DNA of 64,000 nucleotides from Deltaproteobacteria bacterium CG11_big_fil_rev_8_21_14_0_20_42_23. Its GTDB lineage: Bacteria; UBA10199; 2-02-FULL-44-16. The stretch lies in NCBI GenBank assembly GCA_002796345.1, contig PCXC01000039.1, positions 4-64,003 on the forward strand, in the 5' to 3' direction. A program made the translations under genes and the position numbers. Numbering within the stretch: position 1 is the stretch's first letter; each line of letters opens with the position of its first letter. Shown here in pieces: positions 5,414-52,568 of this stretch. Below the pieces are notes generated by a model that did not search any database, had not been told where the DNA came from, and worked only from the letters and a program-made list of their open reading frames with translations.

Positions 5414-6265
5414 ATGGCAGTGGCACTCGAAATTCATCAGCTCAAAAAACATTACGGCTCATTAGTTGCGCTCAATAATCTTGAACTCAGTATTTCAGAA
5501 GGTGAATTTTTCGGCTTACTTGGTCCAAACGGAGCTGGAAAAACAACCTTGATCAAAACGATTATTGGTTTAGCACGAAGAACATCAGGTTCTATAAAGG
5601 TGTTTGGAAAAGATGTGGAAAAAGATTATCTCTATACACGAAAAATGATTGGCGTTGCGGCGCAAGAACCAAATATAGACCACTACTCGCCAATTCAACG
5701 TGTGCTTGAGTTTCAGGGCGGCTATCATGGCATGAATAAAAATGATCGAAGGGAAAAAGCTTTGGCTTTGCTGAAACAATTTGGCCTCATCGAAAAAAGA
5801 AAAGCGATGTTCAAATTTCTTTCTGGCGGAATGCAGCGAAGAGTGATGATTGCACGTTCCATGATGGGATCACCAAAAATCCTCATTCTCGACGAACCCA
5901 GCGCTGGAGTTGATGTAGAGCAGCGTCACGAATTATGGAATGCACTTCGCGATGTGAACAAACAGGGTGTGACCATCATTCTTACCACACACTATATTGA
6001 TGAAGCTGAAGAATTGTGTGAACGCATTGGCATTATTAATAAAGGCGAAATTGAACTTATGGGAAATCCACAACAACTGATCAACAAGTATTGCGATCAG
6101 TATTTTATGGTGAATGGTGAAAAACGCAAAACCTTAGAAGGTCACGATGTGCGTGATGTAGAAGTAAAACAAGGTTCGCTTGAAGAAGTATTTTTAAAAG
6201 TGATTGGAAAATCTATGCATGAATGTGAGCAAGACAGTGAAGCCTCGAAGGATGTTAGTTTATGA
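5414..6265 (+). CDS. ABC transporter ATP-binding protein (ABC-2 type exporter)
   Basis: Walker A GPNGAGKTT, signature LSGGMQRR and Walker B ILILDEP are present. Confidence 0.85.
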   Translation: MAVALEIHQLKKHYGSLVALNNLELSISEGEFFGLLGPNGAGKTTLIKTIIGLARRTSGSIKVFGKDVEKDYLYTRKMIGVAAQEPNIDHYSPIQRVLEFQGGYHGMNKNDRREKALALLKQFGLIEKRKAMFKFLSGGMQRRVMIARSMMGSPKILILDEPSAGVDVEQRHELWNALRDVNKQGVTIILTTHYIDEAEELCERIGIINKGEIELMGNPQQLINKYCDQYFMVNGEKRKTLEGHDVRDVEVKQGSLEEVFLKVIGKSMHECEQDSEASKDVSL

Positions 6266-11238: not shown

Positions 11239-12510
11239 ATGAAAAATGAACCAAGCCAAGAATTAAAGGATATTTTTAAAACCTTAGAGAAAAAAACGGA
11301 ACATGTTTTTATAACGGGTGGTGCAGGAACGGGCAAATCAACGCTGCTTCAGTATTTTCGGGAAAAGACAAAAAAGAACTGTGCCGCACTGGCGCCAACT
11401 GGTGTTGCAGCGGTGAACATCAAAGGGCAAACTATTCATTCTTTTTTCGGCTTCAAGCCAAATGTGACCTTGGAAAAAGCAAAAAAAGCTGCAAAGACTT
11501 TGCTGAAAAATGAAAAGGGCGAGCTCTACAAAAAGCTAGATTGCCTTATCATTGACGAAATTTCCATGGTGCGGGCCGACCTGATAGACTGCATAGATCA
11601 GTTTTTGCGCCTTGTTCGCGGAGATGGCTACACTCCTTTTGGGGGAGTGCAGCTTTTGTTTTTTGGTGATCTTTACCAACTTCCTCCCATTGTTCCTCCG
11701 CTTGAGGCTGAAAAATTTTATCAGCTTTATTCAAGCCCATATTTTTTTGATTCACACGTTTTTGGCGAGATCCATTTAACGCGCATTGAATTGACACAAG
11801 CTTATCGTCAACATGAACCAGAATTTATTTCCATCCTTCACAAAATTCGTGAAAAAAAAGTAACGCCACAAGATCTTGATTGGCTCAATCAACAGTGCTG
11901 CGGAAAAAAACCAGATCATTTGGCAGTTTACCTTACACCACTCAACCGCAAAGCCTTTGGTATCAACGAACAGAAGCTGACCACACTTTCTGGAAAAGAA
12001 ATGATGTATCAAGCTGAGCTGACGGGAAAGTTCGATCAAAAAGCTCTTCCCACTGAAATTGAATTGAACCTCAAAGTGGATGCGCAAGTAATGTTGCTGA
12101 ACAATGATCCTCATAACAGATGGGTGAATGGCAGCGTTGGCACTCTTTTGCGTTTGGGAAAAGACAGCGTTTCAGTTGAACTTGAAAACGGAAGTGTGCA
12201 CGAAATTGAACCGCATACGTGGGAATTGTTTGAATATGAACTCGAAGGCAAAAAACTGCAGACGAAAAGTGTGGGTTCGTTCACTCAGCTTCCGCTTAAA
12301 TTGGCGTGGGCACTTACCATTCACAAAAGCCAAGGGAAAACGTTTGAGCAGGTGGTGGTAGACTTGAGCACAGGCACCTTTGCTTCGGGCCAAGCCTATG
12401 TGGCGCTTAGCAGATGTAGAACGCTCGCGGGTTTAAGCTTGGTGAAGCCGCTGCGCGTACATCACATTTTAGTGGATGCAAAAGTAGGGCAATTTATGAG
12501 TTTAGAGTAA
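11239..12510 (+). CDS. PIF1-family ATP-dependent DNA helicase (RecD-like, AAA_30)
   Basis: Walker A GGAGTGKST followed by APTGVAAVNIKGQTIHSFFGF, DEISMV, and C-terminal TIHKSQGKTFE match PIF1 helicase motifs. Confidence 0.8.
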   Translation: MKNEPSQELKDIFKTLEKKTEHVFITGGAGTGKSTLLQYFREKTKKNCAALAPTGVAAVNIKGQTIHSFFGFKPNVTLEKAKKAAKTLLKNEKGELYKKLDCLIIDEISMVRADLIDCIDQFLRLVRGDGYTPFGGVQLLFFGDLYQLPPIVPPLEAEKFYQLYSSPYFFDSHVFGEIHLTRIELTQAYRQHEPEFISILHKIREKKVTPQDLDWLNQQCCGKKPDHLAVYLTPLNRKAFGINEQKLTTLSGKEMMYQAELTGKFDQKALPTEIELNLKVDAQVMLLNNDPHNRWVNGSVGTLLRLGKDSVSVELENGSVHEIEPHTWELFEYELEGKKLQTKSVGSFTQLPLKLAWALTIHKSQGKTFEQVVVDLSTGTFASGQAYVALSRCRTLAGLSLVKPLRVHHILVDAKVGQFMSLE

Positions 12511-27096: not shown

Positions 27097-27786
27097 ATGT
27101 GCGCCAAAATTGTAAAACGAAAAGACTTTGAAGAGGACAAAAAGGCCAAAGGCGAAACCTTAAGCCCTCTTGAAAAATCCAGTGCCCTTTTGGGCAAATC
27201 ATCCGGCGCCATTCTAGGAAGAAAAACCATAGAAGCTCAAAGCGAAGCCGAGCACATTCTTTTGCATGCAGAAGCCGAAGCAAAAAAAATTCGCGAAGAA
27301 GCATTACAGCTTAAAGCTGAAGCCGAAAAAATTTATGAGTCAGAGCGCAAACGAGGTTATCTGGAAGGGGAAAAAAGAGGCTTGGCTTTAAGTTCTGAAA
27401 AGTTAGTCAAACTTGAAGCGTTAAAAGAACAATTTTACAATAGTGTTGAAGATGAAGTGATTCGTCTTTCCATGGCGGTTGCAGAAAAAGTAATTGGCCA
27501 AATTGCAATCGAAAATAAAGAGATGATCAAAAGTGTAGTGAAAAAAGCGATTGAACGCAGCATTGGTGATCGCATCACCATTCGCGTTCATCCCGATGAC
27601 TACAAAAACATAGTAGGGCACGACGGTGAATTTAGAGATGTCGTCGATCGTACCAAACGCATTTTATTTAAAGAAGATGAAGCAACACCGCAGGGGGGAT
27701 GTATTGTGGAGACTGAAGTGGGCACTATTGATGCTCAACTTGAAACACAGCTCGAAGCAATACGTAAAGCATTAGGCCTTTCCTAA
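27097..27786 (+). CDS. sctL: T3SS stator protein SctL / FliH family (ATPase regulator)
   Basis: An N-terminal charged coiled coil EAEAKKIREEALQLKAEAEKIYE, a C-terminal FliH domain and ITIRVHPDD...GGCIVETEVGTIDAQLETQLEAI. RBS gaggtgggagctATG. Confidence 0.6.
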   Translation: MCAKIVKRKDFEEDKKAKGETLSPLEKSSALLGKSSGAILGRKTIEAQSEAEHILLHAEAEAKKIREEALQLKAEAEKIYESERKRGYLEGEKRGLALSSEKLVKLEALKEQFYNSVEDEVIRLSMAVAEKVIGQIAIENKEMIKSVVKKAIERSIGDRITIRVHPDDYKNIVGHDGEFRDVVDRTKRILFKEDEATPQGGCIVETEVGTIDAQLETQLEAIRKALGLS

Positions 27787-27804
27787 TTTGCTTTGGGGAG
27801 CAAG

Positions 27805-29160
27805 ATGAGCGAAGAAGCCAAAAAATCAGCATCGGCATCACTTCCAGTTGTGGATTTCGATAAATACCATCATCTGCTTTCTGCAGTAACCACCTATACC
27901 ATCAAGGGAAAAGTTACCGAGCTTACCGGCATTGTTGTTCGTTCCGTGGTGCCCGGAGTGAAAATTGGAGAGCTCTGCTTTATTCTTCCTTACCACACAA
28001 AAATTCCCATCAAAGCTGAAGTGGTAGGATTTCGAGATCAAGAAGTTTTGTTGATGCCGCTTGGAAACCTAGAGGGCATAGGGCTTGGAAACGATGTCAT
28101 TCCAACAGGGCACTCTCTTACCGTTCGCGTTGGACCACAATTATTGGGACGCATTTTAGATGGGCTTGGTGATCCGCTTGATGAAGAAGAAAAAGGTCCA
28201 CTCAAATATGAAGAGGAATATCCCGTTACAGCCGAACCTCCAAAAGCGCTAAAAAGAAAACGCATTACCAAACCACTTTCGGTTGGAATTAAAGCCATCG
28301 ACGGCATGCTCACGGTTGGCGAAGGTCAGCGGGTTGGCTTCTTTGCAGCAGCAGGTGTTGGAAAGTCTACCATTATTGGAATGATTGCTCGCAACACCGA
28401 AGCCGAAATCAATGTAATTTGTTTGGTTGGTGAGCGGGGAAGAGAAGTTCGTGATTTTATCGAAAAAGATCTTGGTGAAGAAGGTTTGAAGCGTTCGGTG
28501 GTTATTGTTTCTACTTCAGATCAGCCTTCGTTGGTTCGTATGAAGGCAGCTTATGTTGCAACTGCGATTGCCGAATATTATCGGAACCAAGGCAAAAAAG
28601 TTATCTTGATGATGGATTCTGTTACGCGTTTTGCGAGGGCACTTCGCGAAGTGGGTCTTGCAGTTGGTGAACCGCCTGCAAGAGAAGGTTACACGCCTTC
28701 TGTTTTTTCAACGTTGCCGCGTTTGCTGGAACGTTCGGGAAATTCGGACAAAGGTTCCATCACCGCTTTTTATACCATCCTTGTTGCAGGTGATGACATG
28801 AATGAACCTGTTGCAGATGAAGTGCGTTCAATTTTAGATGGCCACATTATTCTCTCCCGCGAACTTGCTTCCCGTGGGCATTACCCGGCGATTGATATTT
28901 CTGAAAGTGTCTCGCGGGTTATGGACAACATCATCGACGATAAGCACCGTGATGCAGCAAAAAGTTTGCGAGAAGTGGTGGCAAATTATGAAAAAGAACG
29001 AGACCTCATTCTTATAGGTGCCTACGAAGAGGGAAGTGATTCAAAAGTAGATTACGCTCTCGAAAAAATTGAGGATGTAAATAATTATCTCAAGCAGGAT
29101 GTAAACGAGAGCATCTCTTTTCAAGAGTCTCAAGAACTTTTAGAAGAACTGTTTGATTAA
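27805..29160 (+). CDS. sctN: T3SS ATPase SctN / FliI family
   Basis: Walker A AAAGVGKST, Walker B VILMMDSVTRFA, and the F1/T3SS ATPase fold throughout. RBS ggggagcaagATG. Confidence 0.9.
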   Translation: MSEEAKKSASASLPVVDFDKYHHLLSAVTTYTIKGKVTELTGIVVRSVVPGVKIGELCFILPYHTKIPIKAEVVGFRDQEVLLMPLGNLEGIGLGNDVIPTGHSLTVRVGPQLLGRILDGLGDPLDEEEKGPLKYEEEYPVTAEPPKALKRKRITKPLSVGIKAIDGMLTVGEGQRVGFFAAAGVGKSTIIGMIARNTEAEINVICLVGERGREVRDFIEKDLGEEGLKRSVVIVSTSDQPSLVRMKAAYVATAIAEYYRNQGKKVILMMDSVTRFARALREVGLAVGEPPAREGYTPSVFSTLPRLLERSGNSDKGSITAFYTILVAGDDMNEPVADEVRSILDGHIILSRELASRGHYPAIDISESVSRVMDNIIDDKHRDAAKSLREVVANYEKERDLILIGAYEEGSDSKVDYALEKIEDVNNYLKQDVNESISFQESQELLEELFD

Positions 29161-29165
29161 ATATT

Positions 29166-29684
29166 ATGGCAAAAAAAAATAACTATCGACTTCAAGCTCT
29201 GCTTACATTGAAGGAGCGTTTAAAAAGAAAAGCTGAAATTGTGCTAGCGCAAAAAATTATTGCGCTTAAAAAAGAGGAAGAAAAACTTGAAGAACTAAAA
29301 GAAGAATTAAAAGAAATTGTTGAAGCATGGAAAATGGCAAGAAAAAACATGAGTGATGAACTTCGAAAAGGAGCAAGCTCGCACCGGAGTGACATCCACA
29401 GCAATTATCTGAAGCGTTTAAAAGAAGATGAAGAACAAAAAGAAGAAGAAATGGAAGAGCAAAAAGAATGTATCGAAGAAGCAAAAGAAGCGTTGAAAAA
29501 AGCCAGAAGAAATTACATTGATGCAGCAAAAGAACTTCAAGTGATGCAAAAGCATAAAGAACTTTGGGCCAAAAAACTTAAAGGGGAAATTTCAAAGAAA
29601 GAAGCAAAAGAGTTGAATGACCTGGGAAACACTATTCATCAGCTCAAGGCGTGGAAGGGTGAAAAAAGCGTTTTTCAAGCCTAA
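29166..29684 (+). CDS. sctO: T3SS stalk protein SctO / FliJ family (coiled coil)
   Basis: A 172-aa protein that is all helical and charged (KEEEKLEELKEELKE...). It sits directly after the ATPase, as fliJ or yscO does. Confidence 0.5.
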   Translation: MAKKNNYRLQALLTLKERLKRKAEIVLAQKIIALKKEEEKLEELKEELKEIVEAWKMARKNMSDELRKGASSHRSDIHSNYLKRLKEDEEQKEEEMEEQKECIEEAKEALKKARRNYIDAAKELQVMQKHKELWAKKLKGEISKKEAKELNDLGNTIHQLKAWKGEKSVFQA

Positions 29685-29696
29685 GAGGAAAAAACA

Positions 29697-30494
29697 ATGA
29701 GTGAGAAAATTATTATAAAGCCAAAAGATACTCCTGCTTACCGCGAGAAGGAAAAAGAGCGCGTGAAAGAGAAGGAAAAAAATGAGCCAAGTCAATTCGA
29801 TCGCTTGCTTGCTCAAAATAAACTTGGCTTGAAACCAGACATCAAGTTGAATTTAGACCAAATTACGCAGCAAGCGAATTATCAGACTAAAAATAAAGAT
29901 GAAAAAGTCTTTGATCGTGAAAAGAAAAAAGAAGAAGCCAAAGAGCGAGATGCTGAATCTGATACACGCTCTTCTGAAAAAAAAGAAGGCAGCTCAGGAT
30001 CAAGTCAGAAGGTGCTTGCAAAAGGTGGCTTGAAAGATGGCTCTGGTGGTTCTTCGCAAGGTGGTGCAGGTGGAAATGCTTTTGGTGGAACCGGAGCTCA
30101 GCGGAAAAAAGCCGCCAATACTTCCGAATCAAAACTGGCATCGCTGCGTACTTCACTTCAACATCAAGCTGGAAGCTTTACGAATCGAGTTGCCAAGGCT
30201 ATGAATGCGGCTGCATCACAAAAACCAGAGCTGTCGCAGAAACTTCTCGATAAACTGGTTCAGTATGTCAAAGTGGGAATGAACAAAGAGGGTGAAAAAG
30301 AAATTCAACTCGAACTCGATGGAAAACGTTTTAGAGGTTTGCGTTTGAAGGTAACCAGTAAAGATGGAAAAGTTGCGGTCTTGCTTAATGCACAAGATCC
30401 AAAAATGAAAAAAATGTTCGAAGATCAGCAAGACCAGATTTTGTCAGCTTTAGAAAAAGGCGGCGTTGATGTTGCTTCGCTTCATATCGTTTAG
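29697..30494 (+). CDS. sctP: Needle/hook length-control protein SctP / FliK family (T3S4 C-terminal domain)
   Basis: The C-terminal KEIQLELDGKRFRGLRLKVTSKDGKVAVLLNAQDPKMKKMFEDQQDQILSALEKGGVDVASLHI matches the FliK/YscP C-terminal substrate-specificity-switch domain pattern. The N-terminal part is Lys/Glu- and Gly/Ser-rich low complexity. Confidence 0.45.
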   Translation: MSEKIIIKPKDTPAYREKEKERVKEKEKNEPSQFDRLLAQNKLGLKPDIKLNLDQITQQANYQTKNKDEKVFDREKKKEEAKERDAESDTRSSEKKEGSSGSSQKVLAKGGLKDGSGGSSQGGAGGNAFGGTGAQRKKAANTSESKLASLRTSLQHQAGSFTNRVAKAMNAAASQKPELSQKLLDKLVQYVKVGMNKEGEKEIQLELDGKRFRGLRLKVTSKDGKVAVLLNAQDPKMKKMFEDQQDQILSALEKGGVDVASLHIV

Positions 30495-30506
30495 GAGTAG
30501 AACAAG

Positions 30507-31421
30507 ATGAAACAAACTGTGAAGCCTTTCCATTTTCACTTGCAACAACTAAGTCGAAAAAACTTGGAGCTTCAAAATCATTTCTTTTCTTTATTTCCTT
30601 CCGTGTTTGCGGATTCATCCTTTCATAATATTTTGCAGCAAAGTTTAAAAAAGCATTTGTCAGCTCAAGTAGAAATGAAATCAGAATCGTTCAAAGTTAT
30701 TCCAGCTGACGAAATGCTGAAGACCGCCTCGGAAAGTTCGATTTTACTTGTTTTACAGCTCGATCCTTCTCCAGCAAGAATCATTTTGGAACTTGATCAG
30801 CTTTTGGTAGAAAATATCGTGAACAAAATGTTGGGTGGCACAAAAGCTTTAACGCAACAGAGAAAAGTTTCCAATATTGAACTTGGTGTTTTAGAATATT
30901 TACTTTTGCAGGTGATTAAAGATGTGCACAAATATTCTGCCCCCAACATTCCTATGCATTTTCGTTTTGAAACCTTTGTGAATTCAAGACAGGAATTAAA
31001 AAATTACGAAGAAAAAAACAGCTCCTATTTTCTTTTTACAGAACGTATTCACTTAGATGGACTTACCGCTTTTGTAAGATTTTATTTTCCTCAAACGGGG
31101 CTACAAGAATATTCGCAACGCTTTTCGTCTCCCCATTTGGAATCTTTGGCAGAGTACAAAAATTTTCCCTTCGTACGTGTTCCTCTCTGGGCAGAAATTG
31201 GAAAAATTACCCTTTCGCCAGAAGAAATTTCTCAAATAGAAGTGGGTGACGTGATTATGTTCGAGCAAAATGAATTAAGCCTCAACGACAAAGATATTTC
31301 AGGTAATCTCATCCTCCGCGTTGGAAATGGGAAAAATGCTGGAATTCTTTCTGAAGTGAGCGTAAAAAAGAAAACAATTACGTGTACCTTACTAGAGTCT
31401 CAAGAAGGAGATGGTTTATGA
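30507..31421 (+). CDS. sctQ: C-ring / sorting-platform protein SctQ (FliM-like middle with a C-terminal SpoA domain)
   Basis: The C-terminus VPLWAEIGKITLSPEEISQIEVGDVIMFE matches the SpoA (FliN/FliM C-terminal) motif. The gene sits at the fliM position. Confidence 0.5.
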   Translation: MKQTVKPFHFHLQQLSRKNLELQNHFFSLFPSVFADSSFHNILQQSLKKHLSAQVEMKSESFKVIPADEMLKTASESSILLVLQLDPSPARIILELDQLLVENIVNKMLGGTKALTQQRKVSNIELGVLEYLLLQVIKDVHKYSAPNIPMHFRFETFVNSRQELKNYEEKNSSYFLFTERIHLDGLTAFVRFYFPQTGLQEYSQRFSSPHLESLAEYKNFPFVRVPLWAEIGKITLSPEEISQIEVGDVIMFEQNELSLNDKDISGNLILRVGNGKNAGILSEVSVKKKTITCTLLESQEGDGL

Positions 31422-31894
31422 GTAAAAAAGAAAACGACATCGATGATTCATTTTTAGATGACGATCTTGAAGGCTTCGATGACTTCGACTTAGATGCCGA
31501 AGAAGATCAAGAATCTTCAAAAGCTTCAGCTTCAGACGAAAACTTTCTTGAAGATACCGCCGTCGACCTCAAAGTAGATGAAGACGAGATGGATGAAATG
31601 GAAACTTCTTCAAGTGATACGCAGGAAATGCCTGTAAACAGTACGCTTCCCGCTGATGATTTTGGCCTCCTCAATTTAGCTTCCGATGTTCCTGTTCAGC
31701 TCATTGCGATTATGGCAAAGAAAACCATTTCCATGCAAGACTTGGCAGCCTTCCATAAAGGCAGCGTCATCGAGCTCAACCGTCCTCCATCTGAGCAAGT
31801 TGATTTGGTGGCAAATGGAAAGCTTGTAGCGCGAGGTGAGCTGGTTGAAATTGACGGAAAACTTGGCGTGCGCATTATCAAGCTTATTCGCTAA
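31418..31894 (+). CDS. fliN: FliN / SctQ-C-like SpoA-domain protein, encoded by a separate gene with an ATGA overlap
   Basis: C-terminal ISMQDLAAFHKGSVIELNRPPSEQVDLVANGKLVARGELVEIDGKLGVRIIKLI matches the FliN SpoA domain. An acidic N-terminal DDLEGFDDFDLD region precedes it. The start ATG overlaps the sctQ stop (ttATGAgt), with RBS AGGAGA. Confidence 0.7.
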   Translation: MSKKENDIDDSFLDDDLEGFDDFDLDAEEDQESSKASASDENFLEDTAVDLKVDEDEMDEMETSSSDTQEMPVNSTLPADDFGLLNLASDVPVQLIAIMAKKTISMQDLAAFHKGSVIELNRPPSEQVDLVANGKLVARGELVEIDGKLGVRIIKLIR

Positions 31895-31915
31895 CTTTTA
31901 AGAAATGAGAAAAAC

Positions 31916-32260
31916 GTGATAGCTTTACTCGCTCTTGCAACAGCTTCAGTAACAGAACAAAGTACTTTAGATTTTGGAGTACTTTTTTTCAAAATGCTTG
32001 GAGCTTTAGGTGCTGTAACCGTTTTTGCTATTTTGGTTTTAAAGTTTCTAGTTCCCAGACTTAGTTTTGCAAAACGATATCACGAGGAAAAAATGTTTAA
32101 TGTGATTTCTCGATATCAACTTGAACCGAAAAAAAGCTTGTATCTTGTGAAAGTAAGTGAGAAATATTTAGTGCTTGGAGTTTCAGATTCTGCTATACAG
32201 ACACTCACCACGTTAACAAAAGAAGAAGCCTTGGGGGAGGCAAAAAAAGCAGATGCCTAA
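31916..32260 (+). CDS. fliO: FliO-like single-pass membrane protein
   Basis: One TM (LGALGAVTVFAILVLKFLV) followed by a LYLVKVSEKYLVLGVSDSAIQTL FliO-like segment. It lies immediately upstream of fliP with an 8-nt overlap. The start codon is GTG. Confidence 0.4.
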   Translation: MIALLALATASVTEQSTLDFGVLFFKMLGALGAVTVFAILVLKFLVPRLSFAKRYHEEKMFNVISRYQLEPKKSLYLVKVSEKYLVLGVSDSAIQTLTTLTKEEALGEAKKADA

Positions 32261-33062
32261 ACAAACAACGCTTCTACGTACATCCGCAATTGAGAGGAAA
32301 GGGAAGAGGAAAAAACTTTTCCTTTCTTTATTCGTTGCCCTCTTTGGTGTTGGTATAAGCAGTGTTGCTTATGCTCAAACTGCAAACGCCGGCGTTTCAA
32401 AGCCGCTGATTCTTCTCCTTACCCTTGCAGCCCTTTCAGTTGTTCCTTTTTTGGTGATGCTGGTTACATCTTTTGTGAAAATTGCAGTGGTTTTGTCGCT
32501 GATTCGCTCTGCAATTGGAACGCAGCAAGTTCCGCCAAACATTATCATTACGGGCTTGTCCCTTATCTTGACTATTTACATTATGGTTCCAGTTGGCCTC
32601 GAAATTTACAAAGCTGCAGGTGATGTGATTAACCGTGGAACTAATCAGCCGCTTTTATCGCAAGCATCCGTGAAGCTGTTGCAAGAGGGCGCAAGCAAAG
32701 CCAAAGAACCTTTACGAGCTTTTTTAATTAAGCATGTGCATGAAGGTGAAAAAAGTTTGTTTTACAACTTGGCCCTCAAACTTCGCACGACTGATGAAGA
32801 ACGAAAAGAAATTAGCAGCGATGATTTTATCAATCTTGTTCCAGCTTTTGTCATCAGCGAACTTTCTGAAGCCTTTCAAATTGGCTTCATTATTTTCTTG
32901 CCGTTTTTGGTGATTGATTTGGTGATTGCAAATATTTTGCTTTCTTTGGGTATGTTTCAAATTTCGCCTGTTACTATTTCGCTTCCGTTTAAGTTGCTGT
33001 TGTTTGTGTTGGTAGATGGTTGGTTGCTCATTACAAAAGGCCTCGTGTTGGGGTATGTGTAA
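32253..33062 (+). CDS. fliP: Export-apparatus protein SctR / FliP, with an N-terminal signal peptide as in flagellar FliP
   Basis: Signal peptide LFLSLFVALFGVGISSVAYAQ. The conserved FliP core includes PFLVMLVTSFVKIAVVLSLIRSAIG. Confidence 0.85.
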   Translation: MPKQTTLLRTSAIERKGKRKKLFLSLFVALFGVGISSVAYAQTANAGVSKPLILLLTLAALSVVPFLVMLVTSFVKIAVVLSLIRSAIGTQQVPPNIIITGLSLILTIYIMVPVGLEIYKAAGDVINRGTNQPLLSQASVKLLQEGASKAKEPLRAFLIKHVHEGEKSLFYNLALKLRTTDEERKEISSDDFINLVPAFVISELSEAFQIGFIIFLPFLVIDLVIANILLSLGMFQISPVTISLPFKLLLFVLVDGWLLITKGLVLGYV

Positions 33063-33097
33063 AGATATTTTCTGAACCAAGAAAAAGAGACTTTCTT

Positions 33098-33364
33098 ATG
33101 CCAGATTATTTTATCGGAGTTGCAAAACAGACTTTGTTTTTAGCGCTCGTTCTCACGGGTCCTCCAGTTTTGTGCGCCATGCTCATTGGGCTTATCATCA
33201 GTATTTTGCAGGCCACCACTCAAATTCAAGAGCAAACACTTACCTTTGTGCCAAAGCTTTTTGCCATTGTCATTGTTTTGGCTTTTGCTGGTCCTTGGAT
33301 GCTCTCTCAGCTTATCGCGTTTACAACGGCGCTCTACGATGCCTTTCCCAATTATGTGCATTAG
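33098..33364 (+). CDS. fliQ: Export-apparatus protein SctS / FliQ
   Basis: An 88-aa two-TM hairpin; FIGVAKQTLFLALVLTGPPVLCAMLIGLIISILQATTQIQEQTLTFVPKL follows the FliQ consensus. Confidence 0.8.
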   Translation: MPDYFIGVAKQTLFLALVLTGPPVLCAMLIGLIISILQATTQIQEQTLTFVPKLFAIVIVLAFAGPWMLSQLIAFTTALYDAFPNYVH

Positions 33365-33392
33365 CGTTCCGTTTTCAGAGGAAATGTAAAAC

Positions 33393-34307
33393 ATGGATGC
33401 CTATCTCGCTCAACTTGGGGTAAATATCAATGTGAGCTTCAGTCTTTTGTTTTTGGGGCTCATTTGGATACGCATCGTGGCCATGGCTTCTGTAGTTCCT
33501 TTTCTTTTTGGAAATCCTGTTCCCAAAAACATCATGGTGGGCATCTCATTTTTGATTGCTGTTTTTCTTTTTCCGGCTCTTGTTCCTGAAACTCCGCCCG
33601 ATCTCTTTGAAAATCTGCTCGCTATTTTTCTCCTTTTTTTGAAGGAAGCTTTTTACGGTCTCTTGTTTGGATTTGCTATGGGTGCCATTTTCTATGGCTT
33701 TGAAGCTGCGGGATCCATGATTGACAACCAGCGCGGCGTTTCCATCGCCAGACTTCTTATTCCGCAATTGAACCAGCAAGGTTCGCTTTCTGGAAACTTT
33801 TTATTTCAGATGTCCATTGTTTTGTTTTTGGTGTTGAACGGACATCTTTTGTTTTTGGAAGCCTTTCTGCAAAGTTTTGTCAGTCTTCCTGTTTTGCAAT
33901 TCCCCGATGCAGGTGCCAATTTTTTTTCTATGCTTGGGCTCTTTGTGGATATCACCAGCGAAGTGCTTTATGTTTCGGTGCAACTTGCAGCTCCGGTGAT
34001 GATCGCCATTTTCATGGCGGATATCATTCTGGGCATTGCCAATAGAGTAGCGCCGCAAATCAACGTGTGGGAATTGGGCTTCAACATCAAAGGTTACGTT
34101 GGTGTTTTGCTGCTCTTTGTCTCCATCACCATGATTGGCCAACAATTTGAGGCCTATGCCATTCATTCGGTTTCGTATGTGCCGCGGATTACAGAATACC
34201 TCAAAGAAAAGCCGCCATCTGCACCTTCAGACGAAGAACCCGTAGAAGAGGGCCTTCCTGCAGAAGACGCCCTGCCTCAGGTGCTTTCTCCACAGCCACA
34301 ACACTAG
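33393..34307 (+). CDS. fliR: Export-apparatus protein SctT / FliR, with an acidic Pro-rich C-terminal extension of about 45 aa
   Basis: Six-TM FliR topology, ending PSAPSDEEPVEEGLPAEDALPQVLSPQPQH. Confidence 0.8.
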   Translation: MDAYLAQLGVNINVSFSLLFLGLIWIRIVAMASVVPFLFGNPVPKNIMVGISFLIAVFLFPALVPETPPDLFENLLAIFLLFLKEAFYGLLFGFAMGAIFYGFEAAGSMIDNQRGVSIARLLIPQLNQQGSLSGNFLFQMSIVLFLVLNGHLLFLEAFLQSFVSLPVLQFPDAGANFFSMLGLFVDITSEVLYVSVQLAAPVMIAIFMADIILGIANRVAPQINVWELGFNIKGYVGVLLLFVSITMIGQQFEAYAIHSVSYVPRITEYLKEKPPSAPSDEEPVEEGLPAEDALPQVLSPQPQH

Positions 34308-34435
34308 CCTTTTTCCTGGGGTCTTTTTTCCCCATTTTGGCAGTATTTCCCTCTATTTTTCACGACTTCCTCGAAAAAGACTTTTCTAAGTAATTGATAT
34401 TAATACATTATTTTAGATGGTTTGGCCAAAAGCTT

Positions 34436-34452
34436 TGGCATTGGCATTGCAT
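34436..34452 (+). promoter_or_regulatory. Sigma-54 -24/-12 promoter, a near-perfect consensus, upstream of the substrate/chaperone operon
   Basis: TGGCATtggcaTTGCAT with GG-N10-GC spacing. It lies 50 bp upstream of ATG 34503, which has a GAGGAG RBS. Confidence 0.55.
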
Positions 34453-34502
34453 TCATAAGAGGGAGACGGGGACATTTCCTCGGACAACCATGAGGAGTAG
34501 TT

Positions 34503-35663
34503 ATGAGTGTGACTATAAATAGGGTGCAGAAAAAAATTCAAGAAGCTCTCAGCAATGATTACAGAATTGATGAGCAGGAGATGAATGAAATAGAGGATTA
34601 TTTCAAAGAGGGTATTCAAGTTGAAGATAATTCCGCTGACACTATTACTTGGAATGAATTGAAAGTATCCTTATCTAATTCAATTACTGCAACTACTGCT
34701 CAACCACTTAATCCTTCAGAAGCAAGTGTTGAGCAGCTAAAAGTTTTAATGGAAAGAATTGAAACTCTCACAAAAGAAGCTGAGACGCTTAAAAGCGCTC
34801 TTGAAGCCGTTAAAGATGGCACAACTGCTGAAGATACAAAAAATAGACAACTGCTTCAAGCAAAGTTAAGCACAACACAAGCTGCTCTCAAAACTTTTCT
34901 TAATCAAGCTACAACGTTGGCAAAAAAATTTGATCAAACCGCATTGCTTAAAGATGAAATGTTTGAAGCTGCAGGTATGGACATCCCGGAAGAATTGCAT
35001 GCTCAGCAAAAGTCACTTCGTCCGCAAACACGTGCCATGGCAAATGGGCGTGGCGGAGCAAACACAGCCCAAAATGCAAGAGGGCAGAATGCTTCCAGAG
35101 CACTCAGTCTTCCACAATTGCAAAGCCCTGGCGTGAGAGCGCAAGGAACTGGTGATGGCGAAAACTTTCCAAGTGATGCTTTTCTTCGAGCTGGCGCACT
35201 TGATGATATCGCTCTCAATAACTTCGATCAAATTTCTCAGAATCAACGACGTGGTCAGGAACTGTTACGCCTTTTCCATAAGCTGGCAAAGCAAGCGATG
35301 ACAGGTGAACTCGAATACATGTTCGAGTTTTTCAAAGTGGTGAATTACATCGTTTCCAAAAGCCGAGGTAAATCATTGGTGGATATGGGAACGCGTTTGA
35401 TTCAGATTGAAAATCAAAACAAAGAAAACTTAGCTATTTTGCAAAATACAAAAATTGACCCCAACGATCCAAATGCAGCTTTTGAAATGACGAAGGCGCA
35501 GAGTAAATACACACAAGACAGTAAATCGTTGGAACTTTCGCAAAAAATGATCGCGCAAAATATGGAAGACATGGCTATCGTGGTGGAAACGATGAACAAC
35601 ACCTTAAAGGGTATTTTGGAAGCCAAAGGCAGAGTGCTTCGAAACATGTCTCGTTTTGGATAA
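34503..35663 (+). CDS. Hydrophilic coiled-coil protein; a candidate T3SS-secreted substrate (tip/translocator-like or effector)
   Basis: It has no TM segment or signal peptide, long heptad regions and a Gly/Asn/Gln-rich central linker. It is transcribed from a sigma-54 promoter and is immediately followed by an LcrH-class chaperone gene. Confidence 0.35.
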   Translation: MSVTINRVQKKIQEALSNDYRIDEQEMNEIEDYFKEGIQVEDNSADTITWNELKVSLSNSITATTAQPLNPSEASVEQLKVLMERIETLTKEAETLKSALEAVKDGTTAEDTKNRQLLQAKLSTTQAALKTFLNQATTLAKKFDQTALLKDEMFEAAGMDIPEELHAQQKSLRPQTRAMANGRGGANTAQNARGQNASRALSLPQLQSPGVRAQGTGDGENFPSDAFLRAGALDDIALNNFDQISQNQRRGQELLRLFHKLAKQAMTGELEYMFEFFKVVNYIVSKSRGKSLVDMGTRLIQIENQNKENLAILQNTKIDPNDPNAAFEMTKAQSKYTQDSKSLELSQKMIAQNMEDMAIVVETMNNTLKGILEAKGRVLRNMSRFG

Positions 35664-35687
35664 AGGATACCGTATGGCGCTGGCAAG

Positions 35688-36467
35688 ATGGGGGATGTGC
35701 TTCAAAAGTACAATCCCCCTCTTTTTACGGCGTATAATGACAAAAAGCGAAGAAAGAACGAAAGGTTGTCTAAAAGAATGGAAAAAACGGAATATATTTG
35801 GCATAATCAAGAAGTCTGCGATTTTACAGGCTTTTTGGAGATAAGTCCTATGGGAAAAGACAAAAAAGAAAAGCCGGCGAAAGCATCCGCATTCCGTATT
35901 GGCTTTGATGAGGCCATGCCAGAAGAAGAGGCCAAGCGCCAAGTGGCTGAATACATGCGCAAGCTCGAAGAGGAGTATAAAGATGTGCCTCCCGAAGAGC
36001 TTGAAGCTAGTGCCGAGAAAATGCGCGCCTACCTTCGCGGCGATATTGCGTGGGGAGACTTGTTCAACTTTAGCATCGAAGCGCTGATGGAAATGACCGA
36101 CTTCGGCTATCATCAGTTTAAAATGGGAAGATACGAAGATGCCGAGCGCATTTTCAAAGTGCTTACCGTTTTAGATTGGAACAATGCTTATTATCATTCC
36201 ATGTTGGGTTCCATTCTTCACCGGCAAAAACGTTATGCCGAAGCGCTTACCGAATACTCGCAAGCTATTGAACTTTCTCCAAACGATATTCCAAGCCATA
36301 CGCATCGTGGAGAAATTTATCTTATGCATGGTCTTTTGGACAAAGCCAAAGCTGATTTAGAAAAAGCTCTTTCACTTGATGAAAGCGATGAAAACAAGTG
36401 GGTGAATCGCGCACGTATTTTGATGCAGCAACTTGAAAAAAAACAAGCTGCACAAAAAAAGGATTAA
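35688..36467 (+). CDS. T3SS class II (translocator-type) TPR chaperone of the LcrH/SycD/CesD family, with an N-terminal extension of about 100 aa
   Basis: FGYHQFKMGRYEDAERIFKVLTVLDWNNAYYHSMLGSILHRQKRYAEALTEYSQAIELSPNDIPSHTHRGEIYLMHG forms three TPRs with LcrH-family spacing. The start is ambiguous; candidate ATGs are at 35688, 35778 and 35850. Confidence 0.6.
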   Translation: MGDVLQKYNPPLFTAYNDKKRRKNERLSKRMEKTEYIWHNQEVCDFTGFLEISPMGKDKKEKPAKASAFRIGFDEAMPEEEAKRQVAEYMRKLEEEYKDVPPEELEASAEKMRAYLRGDIAWGDLFNFSIEALMEMTDFGYHQFKMGRYEDAERIFKVLTVLDWNNAYYHSMLGSILHRQKRYAEALTEYSQAIELSPNDIPSHTHRGEIYLMHGLLDKAKADLEKALSLDESDENKWVNRARILMQQLEKKQAAQKKD

Positions 36468-47763: not shown

Positions 47764-47837
47764 CAAAAAAATCATGCTATTATCAAAACATAGCGGCAGT
47801 TTTGAAAGCTGTTTCTACCCTCACCAAAGGAGGAATT

Positions 47838-49940
47838 ATGTCATACGATGTCGGAACTCGGCACGCCCTTGTGGATTACATAGCTGGACTCCATGACGAA
47901 CTTAGCAACTACAAAGACTTACACTGGGAAGGAAATTTTTCAGATTATCTGGAAATTGTGGAGAAGAATCCGAAGGTTGCAAGAACGGCGTTCCAACGAC
48001 TCTATGACATGATTATTCGAGAAGGCAGTGAAGAATACAGCGAATATAAAAAACGCATCGTTCATTATAACTTCTTTGAAGATCCAGTCGAAAACGGAAA
48101 AGATGCCATTTATGGTTTAGACCTTCCGCTGATGAAATTGGTGAATGTCTTCCAAGCGGCGGCAAGAAGATATGGCCCAGAAAAACGTATCATCCTTTTG
48201 CATGGCCCTGTAGGTGGCGCAAAATCTACCATTGCGCGCCTTTTGAAAAAAGGTCTCGAGCGTTACAGTAAACTCGAAGAAGGTGCACTCTACAGCTTCA
48301 CCTGGATTCGTGGTGGTGTTGAAGGCATCGAACACATTTTTGGAACAGCAGAATCTATTCCGTGCCCTATGAATGGTGAGCCGCTTTTGCTTATCCCCGA
48401 AGACATTCGAAAAAAAGTTCTGCTTAAAATAAACGACAAACTTCCTCGCGAAGAGCATGTGATCGTAGAGGGCGATTTGTGTCCAGCTTCACGTTTTATT
48501 TACAACGAGTTATTAAAGCACCACAAAGGAAAATGGGATGATGTGGTGAACAACCATGTTAAGGTAAGAAGATTAGTGCTTTCAGAAAAAGATCGAATTG
48601 GAATTGGAACGTTTCAGCCAAAAGATGAAAAAAACCAAGATGCCACTGAGTTAACAGGCGACATCAACTATAGAAAAATTGCTGAGTACGGTTCAGATTC
48701 AGATCCACGTGCCTTTAATTTTGATGGTGAGTTCAACATTTCCAATAGAGGAATGATTGAATTTATCGAGGTGCTCAAATTAGATGTGGCATTCTTGTAC
48801 GATTTGCTAGGCGCGTCGCAAGAGCACAAAGTGAAACCAAAGAAATTTGCGCAAACTGATATTGATGAAGTAATTATCGGTCATACGAACGAAGCTGAGT
48901 ATCGCAGATTGCTCAACAATGAATACATGGAAGCGCTTCGAGATCGTACCATCAAAATTGATATTCCCTACATCACAAAACTTCATGCCGAAATAAAAAT
49001 TTATGAAAAAGACTACAGCGCCGAACGTCTTCCAGGAAAACACATTGCACCTCATACGATTGAGATGGCAGCAATGTGGGCAATTCTCACACGTTTGGAA
49101 GAGCCAAAAAAAGCCAATTTAACCTTGTTGCAAAAACTGCAACTCTATAACGGGCGCTCTATTCCGGGCTATACCGAAGACAATGTAAAAGAGTTGAGAA
49201 AAGAAGCAATGCGAGAAGCCCTTGAAGGAATTTCTCCGCGTTATATTCAAGATAAAATTTCAAATGCGTTGGTTCAAGATGTTTCTGGTCATGGCATCAA
49301 TCCCTTTATGGTGCTGAATGAACTTGAAAGTGGATTGAAAAATCATTCCTTGCTCAAAGATGAACAAAAGAAACGATACCGTGAATTGCTTTCGGCGGTG
49401 AAAGAAGAATACGAAGACATCGTAAAAAATGAAGTGCAAAGAGCGATATCGGCTGATGAAGAGGGTATTTCTCGTTTGTGCGCCAACTACATCGACAATG
49501 TGAAAGCCTATACGCAAAAAGAAAAATTGAAAAATGCGTTTACCGGTCAAGATGAAGACCCTGATGAAAGGCTGATGAGATCTATCGAAGAGAAGATCGA
49601 TATTCCAGACAGCAGAAAAGACGACTTCAGACGAGAAATCATGAACTACATTGGTGCACTTTCTCTCGATGGAAAAGTGTTTGATTATCGCACCAACGAT
49701 AGGCTGCGAAAAGCGCTAGAGCTTAAATTGTTTGAAGATCAAAAAGACAGTATCAAGCTTACAAGTCTTGTTTCAAATGTTGCCGATAAAGAAACGCAAA
49801 AAAAAATTGATGTCGTGAAAAGTCGATTAATTAAATACTATGGCTATAATGAAACGAGTGCTACCGATGTCCTCAATTATGTGGCATCCATCTTTGCGCG
49901 CGGTGATATTAAAGAGAAGAAAAATCCAGCTCGTGTGTAA
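47838..49940 (+). CDS. prkA: PrkA-family serine protein kinase (AAA+ and kinase-like domains)
   Basis: Walker [11 protein letters not shown] and the PrkA C-terminal domain. RBS aaggaggaattATG at 47838; the longer ORF from 47802 has no RBS. Confidence 0.85.
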
Positions 49941-49965
49941 AGCGTTGTGATTTGGATTTCAAACT

Positions 49966-51063
49966 ATGGCTCAAAAAATTGATCAAGACTTGCAGCGATT
50001 TCGCCAAATTGTTCGGGGCAAAATAAAGAAACAGCTCCGAAGATTTATTTCTACAGGTGAACTCATCGGGAAAAAGGGGAATGAGCTTGTCAGCATTCCT
50101 ATCCCTCGCATTACCATTCCTCACTTTGAATTTTCAGACAAACAGCAAAATGGCGTGGGACAAGGAGATGGTGGCGATGGTGAACCTGTTGGCCCTGGTG
50201 ATGGTGGCGGAAAAGCGGGCAATACCGAAGGCAAACACTCGGTTGAAGTGGAAGTGGATTTCGAGCAACTTGCCGAGCTCTTAGGCGAAGAGCTTGAGTT
50301 GCCACGCATTGAACCGAAAGGTGAAGATCAACTTGAATCAGGCGGACTTCGCTATTCAAGTTTGGCATCCGCTGGTCCCGAAAGTCTTCGGCATAGCAAA
50401 CGAACTTTCCGCAAAGCCCTCAAGCGACAAATTGCAAGCTCCACCTATGATCCCCTGCGTCCCATCATTATTCCTGTGCGTGAAGACAGGGTGTATCGTT
50501 CGGCCAAAGTAAAACCAAAACAAAAAAGCAAAGCCCTTATTGTCTATATATTGGATGTGTCTGGTTCAATGGGAAATGAACAAAAAGAAATTGTTCGCCT
50601 CACTTCATTTTGGATCGATACTTGGCTTCGCTCGCAATATCCAGGAGTTGATGTTCGCTATATTATTCACGATGCAGTTGCAAAAGATGTAGATCGTGAA
50701 ACTTTTTTTCATACTCGGGAAAGTGGTGGTACCATTATCTCCTCTGCCTACAAGCTTTTGCTAAGGCTTATTGATGAAGAATATGATCCGAATGAATGGA
50801 ATATTTATCCCTTTCAGTTTTCGGACGGAGATAATTGGTCGGGCAATGATACTGAAGAGTGCCTTAAAATTTTAAACGAACGCATTCTTCCTATTTCAAA
50901 TATGTTTTGCTACGGCCAAGTTGAAAGTGAATACGGAAGCGGCCAATTTCTTCAAGATCTTTTAGGACGTTTTAAAGAGGATGAGCGTGTGGTGACAGCA
51001 AAAATTCCAGGAAGAGAATCTATTTCATCTGCCATTAAAACTTTTTTGGGCAAAGGAAAATAA
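49966..51063 (+). CDS. yeaH: YeaH/YhbH family protein (DUF444, vWA-like), a PrkA partner
   Basis: A Gly/Asp-rich [21 protein letters not shown] loop and the vWA-like DVSGSMG motif. The prkA-yeaH-spoVR order is conserved. Confidence 0.75.
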
Positions 51064-51065
51064 GC

Positions 51066-52568
51066 ATGACTCATGCTGTTTATAAAAAATATGACACAAG
51101 CCTTTCGCCAGAACTGCTTGCCATAAAAAAGAAAGTGAAGCTTTGTGCAGAAGAGTTTGGGCTCGATTTTTTTGAAGTTATTTTCGAAGTTCTTGACTGG
51201 CGGCAAATCAATGAAGTAGCTGCATTTGGTGGTTTTCCAAATCGTTATCCACACTGGAGATTTGGAATGGAGTATGAGCAACTCAGCAAAAGTTATGCTT
51301 ACGGACTTTCAAAAATTTATGAAATGGTCATTAACAATAATCCTTGTTATGCTTACTTGCTTCATTCAAATCAACTTGTGGATCAAAAATTAGTGATGGC
51401 GCATGTATATGGCCACTGTGATTTTTTCAAAAATAATATTTATTTTGCGCACACCAATCGAAAAATGATGGATGAAATGGCCAATCACCGTACAAAAGTG
51501 ATTCGCCATATCGAACGTTATGGCAGAGAGACGGTTGAGGATTTTATTGATGCATGTCTTTCTATCGACACTCTTATAGATTACAATGCGCCAGCTATTC
51601 GCAGAAAATCAATTGAGCATCATCAAGATGCTTCTGGAATTATTCATCGTCTGCATACCGATAAGCCTTATTTAGACAAATTTATCAATCCCCCGGAATT
51701 CCTGGAATATCAACGTCAGCAGCTTGAAGACCAGTTGGAACGTGAACAAAAACTTCCGCTCGAACCTGAAAAAGACATCATGCTCTTTTTGCTTGAGCAT
51801 GCTCCTTTAGAAAGATGGCAACACGATGTCTTGTCCATCATTCGTGAAGAAGCTTATTATTTTGCTCCACAAATGCAGACAAAAATTATTAATGAGGGCT
51901 GGGCGTGTTATGTGCACACGAGATTAATGACTGAAAAACTTTTAACTGATGATGAAGTAATAGATTATGCCGATCACCATTCTGGAACAGTGGCAATGCA
52001 AAAGGGTGGACCCATCAATCCTTACAAAATTGGCTTAGAGCTTTTTCGAGACATTGAGGATCGCTGGAACAAAGGAAAATTTGGAAAAGAGTACGAAGAC
52101 TGTACCAATATGGTAGAACGAGAAAAATGGGATAAAAAACTTGGACTTGGAAGAGAGAAAATTTTCGAGGTAAGAAAAATTTACAATGACATTAACTTTT
52201 TAGAAACATTTCTTACTCCTGAATTTTGTGCGCAGCATAAACTTTTTGTGTACGCACTTAATCCCACTGCAGACCAATACGAAATTGTGACGCGCGAGTT
52301 TAAAAAGGTGAAGCAACAGATTCTCTTTCAGATGACCAATTTTGGAAGGCCCATTATTCATGTGGTGGATGCAAGATACCAAGGCAGAGACGAGCTTTTG
52401 CTCAAGCATTCTCACGAGGGAATGGATTTGCGCGATGATTATCGCAAAGAAGTCATGCAAAATCTTTTCCGTTTCTGGCGGCGACCAGTTCACCTTGAAA
52501 CTATCGCAGAGGGCACAGCAAAAATTTTAAGCTTCGATGGACACAACCACAGCGAAAAAAGACTTTAG
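51066..52568 (+). CDS. spoVR: SpoVR family protein
   Basis: Full-length match to the SpoVR architecture. It lies 3 nt after the yeaH stop. Confidence 0.8.
   Translation: MTHAVYKKYDTSLSPELLAIKKKVKLCAEEFGLDFFEVIFEVLDWRQINEVAAFGGFPNRYPHWRFGMEYEQLSKSYAYGLSKIYEMVINNNPCYAYLLHSNQLVDQKLVMAHVYGHCDFFKNNIYFAHTNRKMMDEMANHRTKVIRHIERYGRETVEDFIDACLSIDTLIDYNAPAIRRKSIEHHQDASGIIHRLHTDKPYLDKFINPPEFLEYQRQQLEDQLEREQKLPLEPEKDIMLFLLEHAPLERWQHDVLSIIREEAYYFAPQMQTKIINEGWACYVHTRLMTEKLLTDDEVIDYADHHSGTVAMQKGGPINPYKIGLELFRDIEDRWNKGKFGKEYEDCTNMVEREKWDKKLGLGREKIFEVRKIYNDINFLETFLTPEFCAQHKLFVYALNPTADQYEIVTREFKKVKQQILFQMTNFGRPIIHVVDARYQGRDELLLKHSHEGMDLRDDYRKEVMQNLFRFWRRPVHLETIAEGTAKILSFDGHNHSEKRL

Follow-up and report, generated by a model that had tools for sequence, protein, structure and literature searches.

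A conserved, near-consensus sigma-54 promoter candidate ahead of a putative type III secretion substrate gene in an uncultivated deltaproteobacterium

Overview

We analysed a stretch of 64,000 nucleotides (64 kb, hereafter the window) of contig PCXC01000039.1 from Deltaproteobacteria bacterium CG11_big_fil_rev_8_21_14_0_20_42_23, which carries a gene cluster for type III secretion (T3SS), and in it a -24/-12 element, TGGCATtggcaTTGCAT, located at 34436-34452 on the + strand between the secretion gene sctT and a gene that we call sub1. We consider it very likely that this element is a functional sigma-54 (RpoN) promoter, and we read it together with a scheme in which a neighbouring enhancer-binding protein (EBP), EBP1, would act from a conserved upstream palindrome to switch on sub1, the first of two candidate secreted proteins. 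The assignment draws on the geometry of the element, pattern counts, orthologous loci, a position weight matrix and an alignment. An earlier, first-pass annotation of the same DNA had proposed a genuine sigma-54 promoter ahead of candidate substrate and chaperone genes, with the EBP dependence that this implies, and both the sequence and the comparative evidence given below support that proposal.

The sigma-54 element and its surroundings

The sequence at 34436-34452 (+) is TGGCATTGGCATTGCAT, or, spelled out, TGGCAT-tggca-TTGCA. The GG (34437-38) and the GC (34449-50) are 10 nt apart, which is the separation needed by sigma-54, and the only departure from the consensus TGGCAC-N5-TTGCW is a C to T change in the sixth base. 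The sctT (FliR-family) open reading frame (ORF) stops at 34307 (PF01311, E 1e-50). The element ends 50 bp before the ATG of sub1 at 34503, its GC is 53 nt from that codon, and a GAGGAG Shine-Dalgarno sequence is found at 34492-97. The near-consensus motif, the 195-bp gap after sctT and the distance of 50 bp to the next gene, all described in the first-pass annotation, were reproduced; the motif is one base off the consensus, has the correct spacing and is the only exact match to TGGCAYN5TTGCW in the 64 kb.

On its own, an exact match somewhere in the window is weak evidence: shuffled windows contain a mean of 0.28 such matches per 128 kb (both strands), and 23% of them have at least one. For the 195-nt gap and the right strand, simple arithmetic from the shuffle rate gives an expectation of about 4e-4. 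A position weight matrix built from ten other loci, with the window left out, scores the site at 19.1 bits and ranks it first among 128,000 positions, the runner-up having 10.4 bits. Looser searches were not informative as counts, since the pattern TGG-N9-TTGCW has 9 matches in the window vs 8.8 expected, and the one-mismatch sigma-54 pattern 10 vs 8.0 expected. Among the loose-pattern matches, only two have GG and GC intact and are intergenic and upstream of a gene, namely the 34436 element and a site at 24604 that is discussed further below. We found no sigma-70-like promoter on the + strand of the gap between sctT and sub1, and no Rfam match in 34200-35900.

Conservation of the element in related loci

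Related loci of about 12.6 kb each were collected from species-representative genomes (by a scan with SctT), from metagenomes (by a scan with the chaperone) and from eight contig look-ups of chaperone homologues. Eleven loci, counting the window, reach the promoter region (the others are L001, L003 and L014 to L021), and TGGCAY-N5-TTGCA is present upstream of the sub1 orthologue in all eleven. The distance from the element to sub1 is 47-90 nt in the loci with a measured start (all but L003). In a 97-nt motif-centred alignment of the eleven intergenic regions, the invariant columns are TTGGCA and TTGCAT only, while the spacers and the flanks of the element vary. The loci are considerably diverged, sub1 being 26-30% and SctT 50-57% identical, and the gene order is kept throughout: FliM-FliN-FliO-SctRST, the gap, the sub1-chap1-sub2-chap2 group, and then a convergent EBP with an FHA domain (FHA-EBP) and a kinase. 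In L001 and L021, sctT and sub1 are set apart by additional genes or by over 1 kb, yet the element remains with sub1, which rules out coincidence and shows that it belongs to that gene. Chance is likewise ruled out by the ten further independent loci, where the element recurs at the corresponding position.

A candidate activator and its probable input

Sigma-54 promoters are silent until an AAA+ EBP remodels the closed complex, and the promoter at 34436 would thus also be silent until such a protein acts on it. The first-pass annotation had counted two FHA-type EBPs in the window, and both are there: EBP1 at 38151-39587 (-) and EBP2 at 62214-63827 (-). EBP1 consists of an FHA domain, a sigma-54 AAA+ domain and an HTH_8 domain, as recognised by Pfam (PF00158 E 5e-69; FHA 73.6 bits; HTH_8 23.0 bits with a cut-off of 22), and contains the Walker motifs including Walker B, the ESELFGH motif, a GSFTGA loop and the REDLYYRL arginine-finger region. 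No other gene of the neighbourhood is as well conserved: its orthologues in 9 related loci share 68-74% identity with it, and its C-terminal helix-turn-helix (HTH) segment is largely invariant across 8 orthologues. The EBP and the kinase adjoin the sub1 group in L014 to L021, and part of the EBP is seen in L005. EBP2, which has two FHA domains and PF00158, is a 37-38% paralogue located 24 kb away and not linked to the cluster. Because EBP1 is syntenic and the best conserved, and EBP2 only an unlinked paralogue, we infer that EBP1 is the most likely activator of the 34436 promoter.

Immediately upstream of EBP1, on the same strand, lies a gene for a Ser/Thr protein kinase with PEGA repeats (39553-42213, -). 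Judging from this arrangement, the kinase is probably the signal input to the FHA domain of EBP1. In the scheme that we propose, EBP1, encoded convergently just downstream of the sub1 group, would be the activator, and its activity would be set by the adjacent kinase through recognition of phospho-threonine by the FHA domain.

A conserved palindrome and an IHF-like site upstream of the promoter

A search for palindromes 80-200 bp upstream of the element, suggested in the first-pass annotation as a way to locate EBP sites, returned the conserved sequence GGGGTCTTTTTTCCCC, of the form GGGG-N8-CCCC, at 34318-34333 (no strand), 118 nt upstream of TGGCA. We regard it as a candidate enhancer, that is, an upstream activating sequence for the FHA-EBP. 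Nine loci have GGGG-N8-CCCC at a distance of 99-153 nt upstream of the promoter, and one-mismatch copies are found in the other two. There are 2 exact matches in the 64-kb window vs 0.12 expected; in 8 of 9 related loci it is the sole match in the locus, and L019 has one more. The distance from the sctT stop codon to the palindrome varies widely among the loci, from 3 to 1249 nt, so the palindrome appears to travel with the promoter. A search for 9-mers common to all upstream regions found none that is universal beyond AT-rich stretches and this G4/C4 element.

Between the palindrome and the promoter there is a match to the consensus of integration host factor (IHF), TAAGTAATTGATA at 34387-34399 (-), which is exact to WATCAANNNNTTR. 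The window, L001, L003 and L014 have exact IHF consensus matches between positions -49 and -61 relative to TGGCA; the background rate amounts to 0.00-0.03 per 120 nt. We propose that EBP1 would bind the palindrome at 34318-34333, with the IHF-like site in between serving as a bend site.

Transcript start, leader and extent of the unit

From the geometry of sigma-54 promoters, the start of transcription is predicted at 34461-34462 (+), about 11-12 nt after the GC. Transcription from near 34461 would then pass through a short structured leader into sub1. The predicted 5' untranslated region contains a hairpin, CGGGG-acattt-CCTCG, at 34467-34482 (+), and the corresponding leader hairpins of relatives are stronger (z -2 to -2.9). 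A GACGG motif is conserved about 13-15 nt after the -12 GC, and the hairpin begins there in most loci. These features would fit a stabilising stem-loop at the 5' end of the sub1 mRNA.

The first-pass annotation had placed a four-gene unit (substrate, chaperone, substrate, chaperone) behind the promoter. The gene order agrees with this, but the first gene is followed by a strong terminator, both in the window and in at least six relatives. In the window it is an intrinsic terminator at 35690-35726 (+) with the stem GGGGGAT...ATCCCCC followed by TCTTTTT (dG -22.5 kcal/mol, z -4.0; none of 200 shuffled sequences folds as well). Terminators of canonical form are located at the same place in L014 (5815-5848), L016, L018, L019 (5887-5922), L020 (4079-4113) and L021 (5919-5955). 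After the terminator and ahead of chap1, a promoter-like box, CTTGCCC-N13-15-ATGrTAATTT, is conserved in 8 relatives; it is absent from this position in the window, where TATAAT is found instead. Because of the strong terminator, we conclude that the promoter probably serves mainly sub1 rather than four genes, that sub1 is probably a largely monocistronic unit, and that the four genes probably form two transcription units. Most transcripts would end at 35690-35726, much as in a flagellin-type single-gene unit, with partial read-through at most into chap1-sub2-chap2.

Alternative explanations

Several observations weigh against the scheme of a sigma-54 promoter activated by EBP1 from the palindrome. 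No RpoN domain was found among the window ORFs scanned, and the presence of sigma-54 is deduced only from the two EBPs. The EBP1 loop reads GSFTGA and not the canonical GAFTGA (GSFTGA in 7 of 8 orthologues, GAFTGA in L015), the leader hairpin of the window is weak (z -0.2), and L014, L019 and L020 are maybe close relatives, which brings the number of independent lineages nearer to 8 than to 11. Finally, the palindrome could be a hairpin that acts as a terminator or insulator and shields the promoter, the real EBP site being elsewhere, either inside sctT or in the 7-nt repeats that some relatives have. We consider this somewhat unlikely, even though there is a good deal to be said for it. In the window, both copies of the palindrome come 10-32 nt after a stop codon and have ATTTT or a T8 run behind them; in L001 and L018 it overlaps or adjoins the stop codon of a small upstream ORF; and the fold of 34318-34333 is better than that of shuffled sequences (z -2.4). 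On the other hand, the stem is no longer than 4 bp, its loop has a constant length of 8 nt, and its sequence does not covary but is invariant; most relatives have a poor T-run or none at all; and the true terminators of these genomes are different, with 10-bp GC stems. Moreover, the palindrome is 354 nt from the sctT stop in L020 and 1249 nt in L021, where the upstream gene is on the other strand, and it is absent from the many other operon ends of the window. We therefore favour GGGG-N8-CCCC as a candidate EBP-binding site over a hairpin or insulator. That the promoter depends on sigma-54 but is activated by EBP2, or by an EBP encoded elsewhere, with EBP1 acting on other targets, is in our view distinctly unlikely. 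EBPs need not regulate their neighbours, and the window does encode a second FHA-EBP. But EBP1 and its kinase keep their synteny with the sub1 genes in each locus long enough to show it, EBP2 shares only 37-38% identity with the EBP1 orthologues and has no orthologue of its own type in the related loci, and the largely invariant HTH of EBP1 fits an invariant palindrome at the promoter.

Two further explanations do without a sigma-54 promoter. The conserved blocks might be read by another factor, either the FliA/WhiG-like sigma factor of the cluster (24655-25545) or a regulator that binds them as an operator. Late flagellar substrates are often sigma-28-dependent, and the cluster does encode a sigma-28-like factor; yet the invariant TTGGCA-N6-TTGCAT has the spacing of sigma-54 and is unlike the sigma-28 consensus TAAA-N15-GCCGATAA, of which no example is evident in the aligned gaps. 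The blocks are not palindromic, unlike a dimeric operator, and a dedicated EBP, a type of protein that acts only with sigma-54, is conserved in the neighbourhood. Taken together, this makes another factor very improbable. To the idea that the motif is coincidental and that sub1 is expressed by read-through from sctRST we give practically no credence. It is true that nearly a quarter of the shuffled windows contain an exact match, and that the hairpin behind sctT, whose stem has 4-5 bp, is a weak one, which makes some read-through likely. Coincidence does not account for the recurrence of the element in the other loci with only the -24/-12 blocks invariant, nor does read-through account for its staying with sub1 in L001 and L021, and read-through can coexist with a dedicated promoter.

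The T3SS cluster, sub1 and its neighbours

According to Pfam and NCBIfam scans, the T3SS cluster occupies about 21.5 to 38 kb of the + strand. Its early part contains a possible needle-like gene, a CdsG-like TPR protein, SctJ and the FliA/WhiG-like sigma factor; further along there are FliG-like, FliH/SctL, ATPase, YscO/FliJ, FliK-like, FliM-, FliN- and FliO-like proteins and SctR, SctS and SctT. Within 21484-34307, flagellar-type parts (FliG-, FliM- and FliO-like proteins and the FliA-like sigma factor) are mixed with injectisome-type parts (an SctJ lipoprotein-type ring and, in the cluster as a whole, LcrH/SycD- and CdsG-like TPR proteins). SctR fits EscR/YscR better than FliP, and the SctN ATPase passes the cut-offs of both FliI_clade2 and SctN. 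The SctV, SctU and secretin (SctC) families were not found among the ORFs scanned in the 64-kb window, and neither Pfam nor NCBIfam revealed a rod, hook or filament family of flagella in the cluster. At 21484-22565, a 179-aa protein with a helical, Q/S-rich C-terminus is encoded directly 5' of a 149-aa TPR protein that matches best the CdsG family of chlamydial needle chaperones (E 6e-11, under the cut-off); the pair may represent a needle-like subunit and the chaperone for it.

The promoter would directly serve sub1 (34503-35663, +), which encodes a candidate T3SS substrate of 386 aa without a transmembrane segment or family assignment. This gene is followed by chap1 (35688-36467, +; the database call starts at 35778 and has 229 aa), which matches TPR families including TPR_3, by sub2 (36471-37379, +), a second candidate substrate of 302 aa without a family match, and by chap2 (37288-37947, +), which matches TPR families and TIGR02552 and whose actual start probably lies directly behind the sub2 stop codon, where the relatives have it. 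TIGR02552 is the best NCBIfam match of both chap1 (81.0 bits) and chap2 (66.7 bits), and both scores are below the cut-off of 104.8; the two proteins are LcrH/SycD-like, and we do not file them as members of the LcrH/SycD/CesD family. Small TPR genes stand beside substrate candidates in a T3SS cluster, and substrates and chaperones alternate in all loci. The substrate and chaperone identities given in the first-pass annotation thus hold in part: the LcrH/SycD-like TPR matches and the conserved alternation speak for them, but the TPR scores are below the cut-off and the substrates match no family or fold. From this context, secretion of sub1 and sub2 is a reasonable expectation.

The sub1 protein is all-helical, with a variable N-terminal half and 180 conserved C-terminal residues. 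Neither sub1 nor sub2 had a match in Pfam, NCBIfam or PDB sequence searches, and no similarity of sub1 to flagellin or other axial proteins could be detected. A word-indexed homologue search with sub1 returned only itself and one relative, while a full HMMER scan of 1.84 billion representatives gave a family of about 115 clusters, none of them annotated. A profile of 50 sub1 sequences found only coiled-coil noise and a weak EF-hand-like N-terminal match in the PDB. Two AlphaFold models were made, one unusable (pLDDT 48) and one with pLDDT 77.5, and a Foldseek search with the second returned nothing below E 0.1; the resemblance to an IpaB-like coiled coil was discarded, as these matches had E values of about 1 and are not significant. 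Most sub1 orthologues start with an EF-hand-like loop, DxxxDGrIDxxE, which gives the weak profile matches to calcium-binding proteins in the PDB (E about 1e-3); the loop is degenerate in the window copy (34503-34620).

A second sigma-54-like site and a possible cascade

The only other copy of the palindrome in the window, GGGGAGTGAAATCCCC, is at 24474-24489 (no strand) and has the same flanks as the first copy, CCTGGGG...CCCCATTTT. It is located 130 nt upstream of a second sigma-54-like element, TGGCATgttttCTGCAT (24604-24620, +), which has one mismatch and intact GG and GC. The GC of this element is 37 nt before the ATG at 24655 of the FliA/WhiG-like sigma gene (24655-25545). The chance that another of the ten one-mismatch matches falls 90-170 nt from a palindrome is about 0.02. 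The related loci end about 1 kb short of the 24604 region. This arrangement suggests a cascade from sigma-54 to a sigma-28-like factor within the cluster. We speculate that the elements could form a self-contained circuit, which would be new for a T3SS, in which the PEGA kinase acts on the FHA-EBP, the FHA-EBP on the GGGG-N8-CCCC enhancer, and the enhancer on two sigma-54 promoters, one for a major secreted protein and the other for a FliA-like sigma factor that runs the rest of the hierarchy. This proposal is tentative, and we would put its chances at a little short of even. If it is true, a non-flagellar T3SS that mixes flagellar and injectisome features would have kept a flagellum-style cascade from sigma-54 to sigma-28, in an uncultivated lineage that bears the annotation Deltaproteobacteria, and a eukaryote-like kinase input would take the place of the usual two-component input.

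Other features of the upstream regions and of the window

In four relatives, tandem 7-nt repeats abut the -24 element; the window has none. They consist of AATCACT/AGTCACT in L014 (4500-4588, with inverted copies further upstream), GGTCTAA in L019 (4622-4661), AATCACG and GTGTCTC in L020 (2715-2841) and GGTCTAT in L021 (4625-4652). An enrichment of GTCT upstream of the promoter (31 observed, 10 expected) was traced mostly to the repeats of these four loci and does not represent a general site. Between sctT and sub1, L001 (6268-6444) and L018 (4333-4486) have an additional sigma-54-like site (TGGCGCggggaTTGCA and TGGCTCgaataTTGCT) with a small ORF behind it. This ORF ends at the palindrome; it is a called gene of 34 aa in L018 and has about 40 aa by our reading in L001. 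An exact sigma-54 element, TGGCATattgaTTGCA, is also found at 12164-12179 (-) of L003 and at 6129-6144 (-) of the related locus L012, about 58 nt upstream of a 220-aa ORF near T3SS genes to which no function is assigned, and which may be a further regulon member or an effector.

The gap between the convergent chap2 and EBP1 genes of the window, at 37960-38114, is filled by a perfect inverted repeat of 21 nt, AGAAAAATTTTCTTTCCTTTG / CAAAGGAAAGAAAATTTTTCT, whose arms are separated by 113 nt, and which has an inner inverted repeat, GACCTTCATC / GATGAAGGTC, inside it. The three genes of a PrkA, DUF444 and SpoVR-like set at 47802-52568 (+) form an ordinary conserved operon that is apparently unrelated to the promoter.

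Comparison with known systems

It is useful to compare the sub1 unit with flagellin and other late flagellar genes that depend on sigma-54, such as flaB of Campylobacter and Helicobacter with FlgR, flaA of Vibrio with FlrC, and the flagellins of Caulobacter with FlbD. In these systems a -24/-12 promoter serves a single gene for an abundant secreted structural protein that is followed by a terminator, the activator is an EBP of the NtrC family, and sigma-54 and a FliA-type sigma factor form a hierarchy. The sub1 unit resembles them in its promoter, its one gene, its terminator, the NtrC-family EBP and the FliA-type sigma factor alongside. The flagellar EBPs are two-component response regulators, whereas an FHA protein is found here; moreover, sub1 shows no detectable similarity to flagellin, and SctJ- and LcrH/SycD-type features are present in the cluster.

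Control of T3SS and flagellar genes by sigma-54 is already known, and the 34436 element is of this familiar kind. One precedent is plasmid pDV1 of Desulfovibrio vulgaris, also annotated as a member of the Deltaproteobacteria, where T3SS operons and a putative effector have predicted sigma-54 promoters, the EBP DVUA0100 is encoded inside the T3SS cluster, and a common upstream motif was inferred by comparative genomics (Kazakov et al. 2015, PMC4641369). The D. vulgaris EBP is listed as a single-component regulator with a degenerate GVATGV loop, as opposed to the FHA input, the GSFTGA loop and the adjacent Ser/Thr kinase described here; its targets are machinery operons, while the present ones are a substrate gene and possibly a FliA-like sigma gene, and the T3SS types differ (PMC4641369). 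In Pseudomonas syringae, a sigma-54 promoter with the dedicated EBPs HrpR and HrpS stands at the top of the T3SS hierarchy and drives the alternative sigma factor gene hrpL, which parallels the second site at 24604 ahead of the FliA-like sigma gene; HrpL is an extracytoplasmic function sigma factor, HrpRS have no sensory domains, and the substrates are not transcribed by sigma-54 (PMC5263251). The sigma-54/CtcC regulon of Chlamydia trachomatis includes T3SS effectors, so that, as proposed here, sigma-54 is found on secreted proteins rather than on the machinery, but the activator is a two-component NtrC homologue, and the phylum, the lifestyle and the T3SS family all differ (PMC7482065).

The domain make-up of EBP1 (FHA, AAA+, HTH) is also that of EBPs with an FHA domain in Myxococcus xanthus, an organism rich in Ser/Thr kinases (Jelsbak et al. 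2005, PMC549468, as cited in PMC12288465). In the literature searched we found no link between an FHA-EBP and the T3SS of Myxococcus. The secretion system itself can be compared to the secretin-less "Myxo" group of non-flagellar T3SS, or needleless T3SS* (PMC3459982, PMC12075869), which is defined by the absence of a secretin and by a basal position in the tree of non-flagellar T3SS (Abby & Rocha 2012). The likeness is one of gene content only, namely that no secretin was detected in the region examined here; besides, the window has a CdsG-like chaperone beside a possible needle-like gene.

The proposed use of an FHA-EBP with a Ser/Thr kinase as input is less familiar, as are the candidate enhancer and a possible cascade in a T3SS of mixed flagellar and injectisome type. 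The findings provide a testable regulatory map, consisting of a promoter, a probable activator, a candidate enhancer and a probable signal input, for a T3SS found only in uncultivated bacteria; the relatives include metagenome-assembled genomes of the CG and RIFCS sets, CG presumably standing for Crystal Geyser, together with many metagenomes. Contigs of these relatives include MGSB01000033.1, JAJZQH010000004.1, JAZDOG010000100.1, DYJF01000011.1 and ERZ27248074 k141_127668. The components are few and compact, and the circuit could be rebuilt in E. coli. As a gene that would be switched on separately from the machinery, sub1 is the best candidate for the main secreted product of the system. More generally, the locus is a further instance of a secretion system linked to sigma-54, an FHA-EBP and a Ser/Thr kinase, and it gives a hint that the flagellar logic of sigma-54 to sigma-28 may have survived in a non-flagellar descendant.

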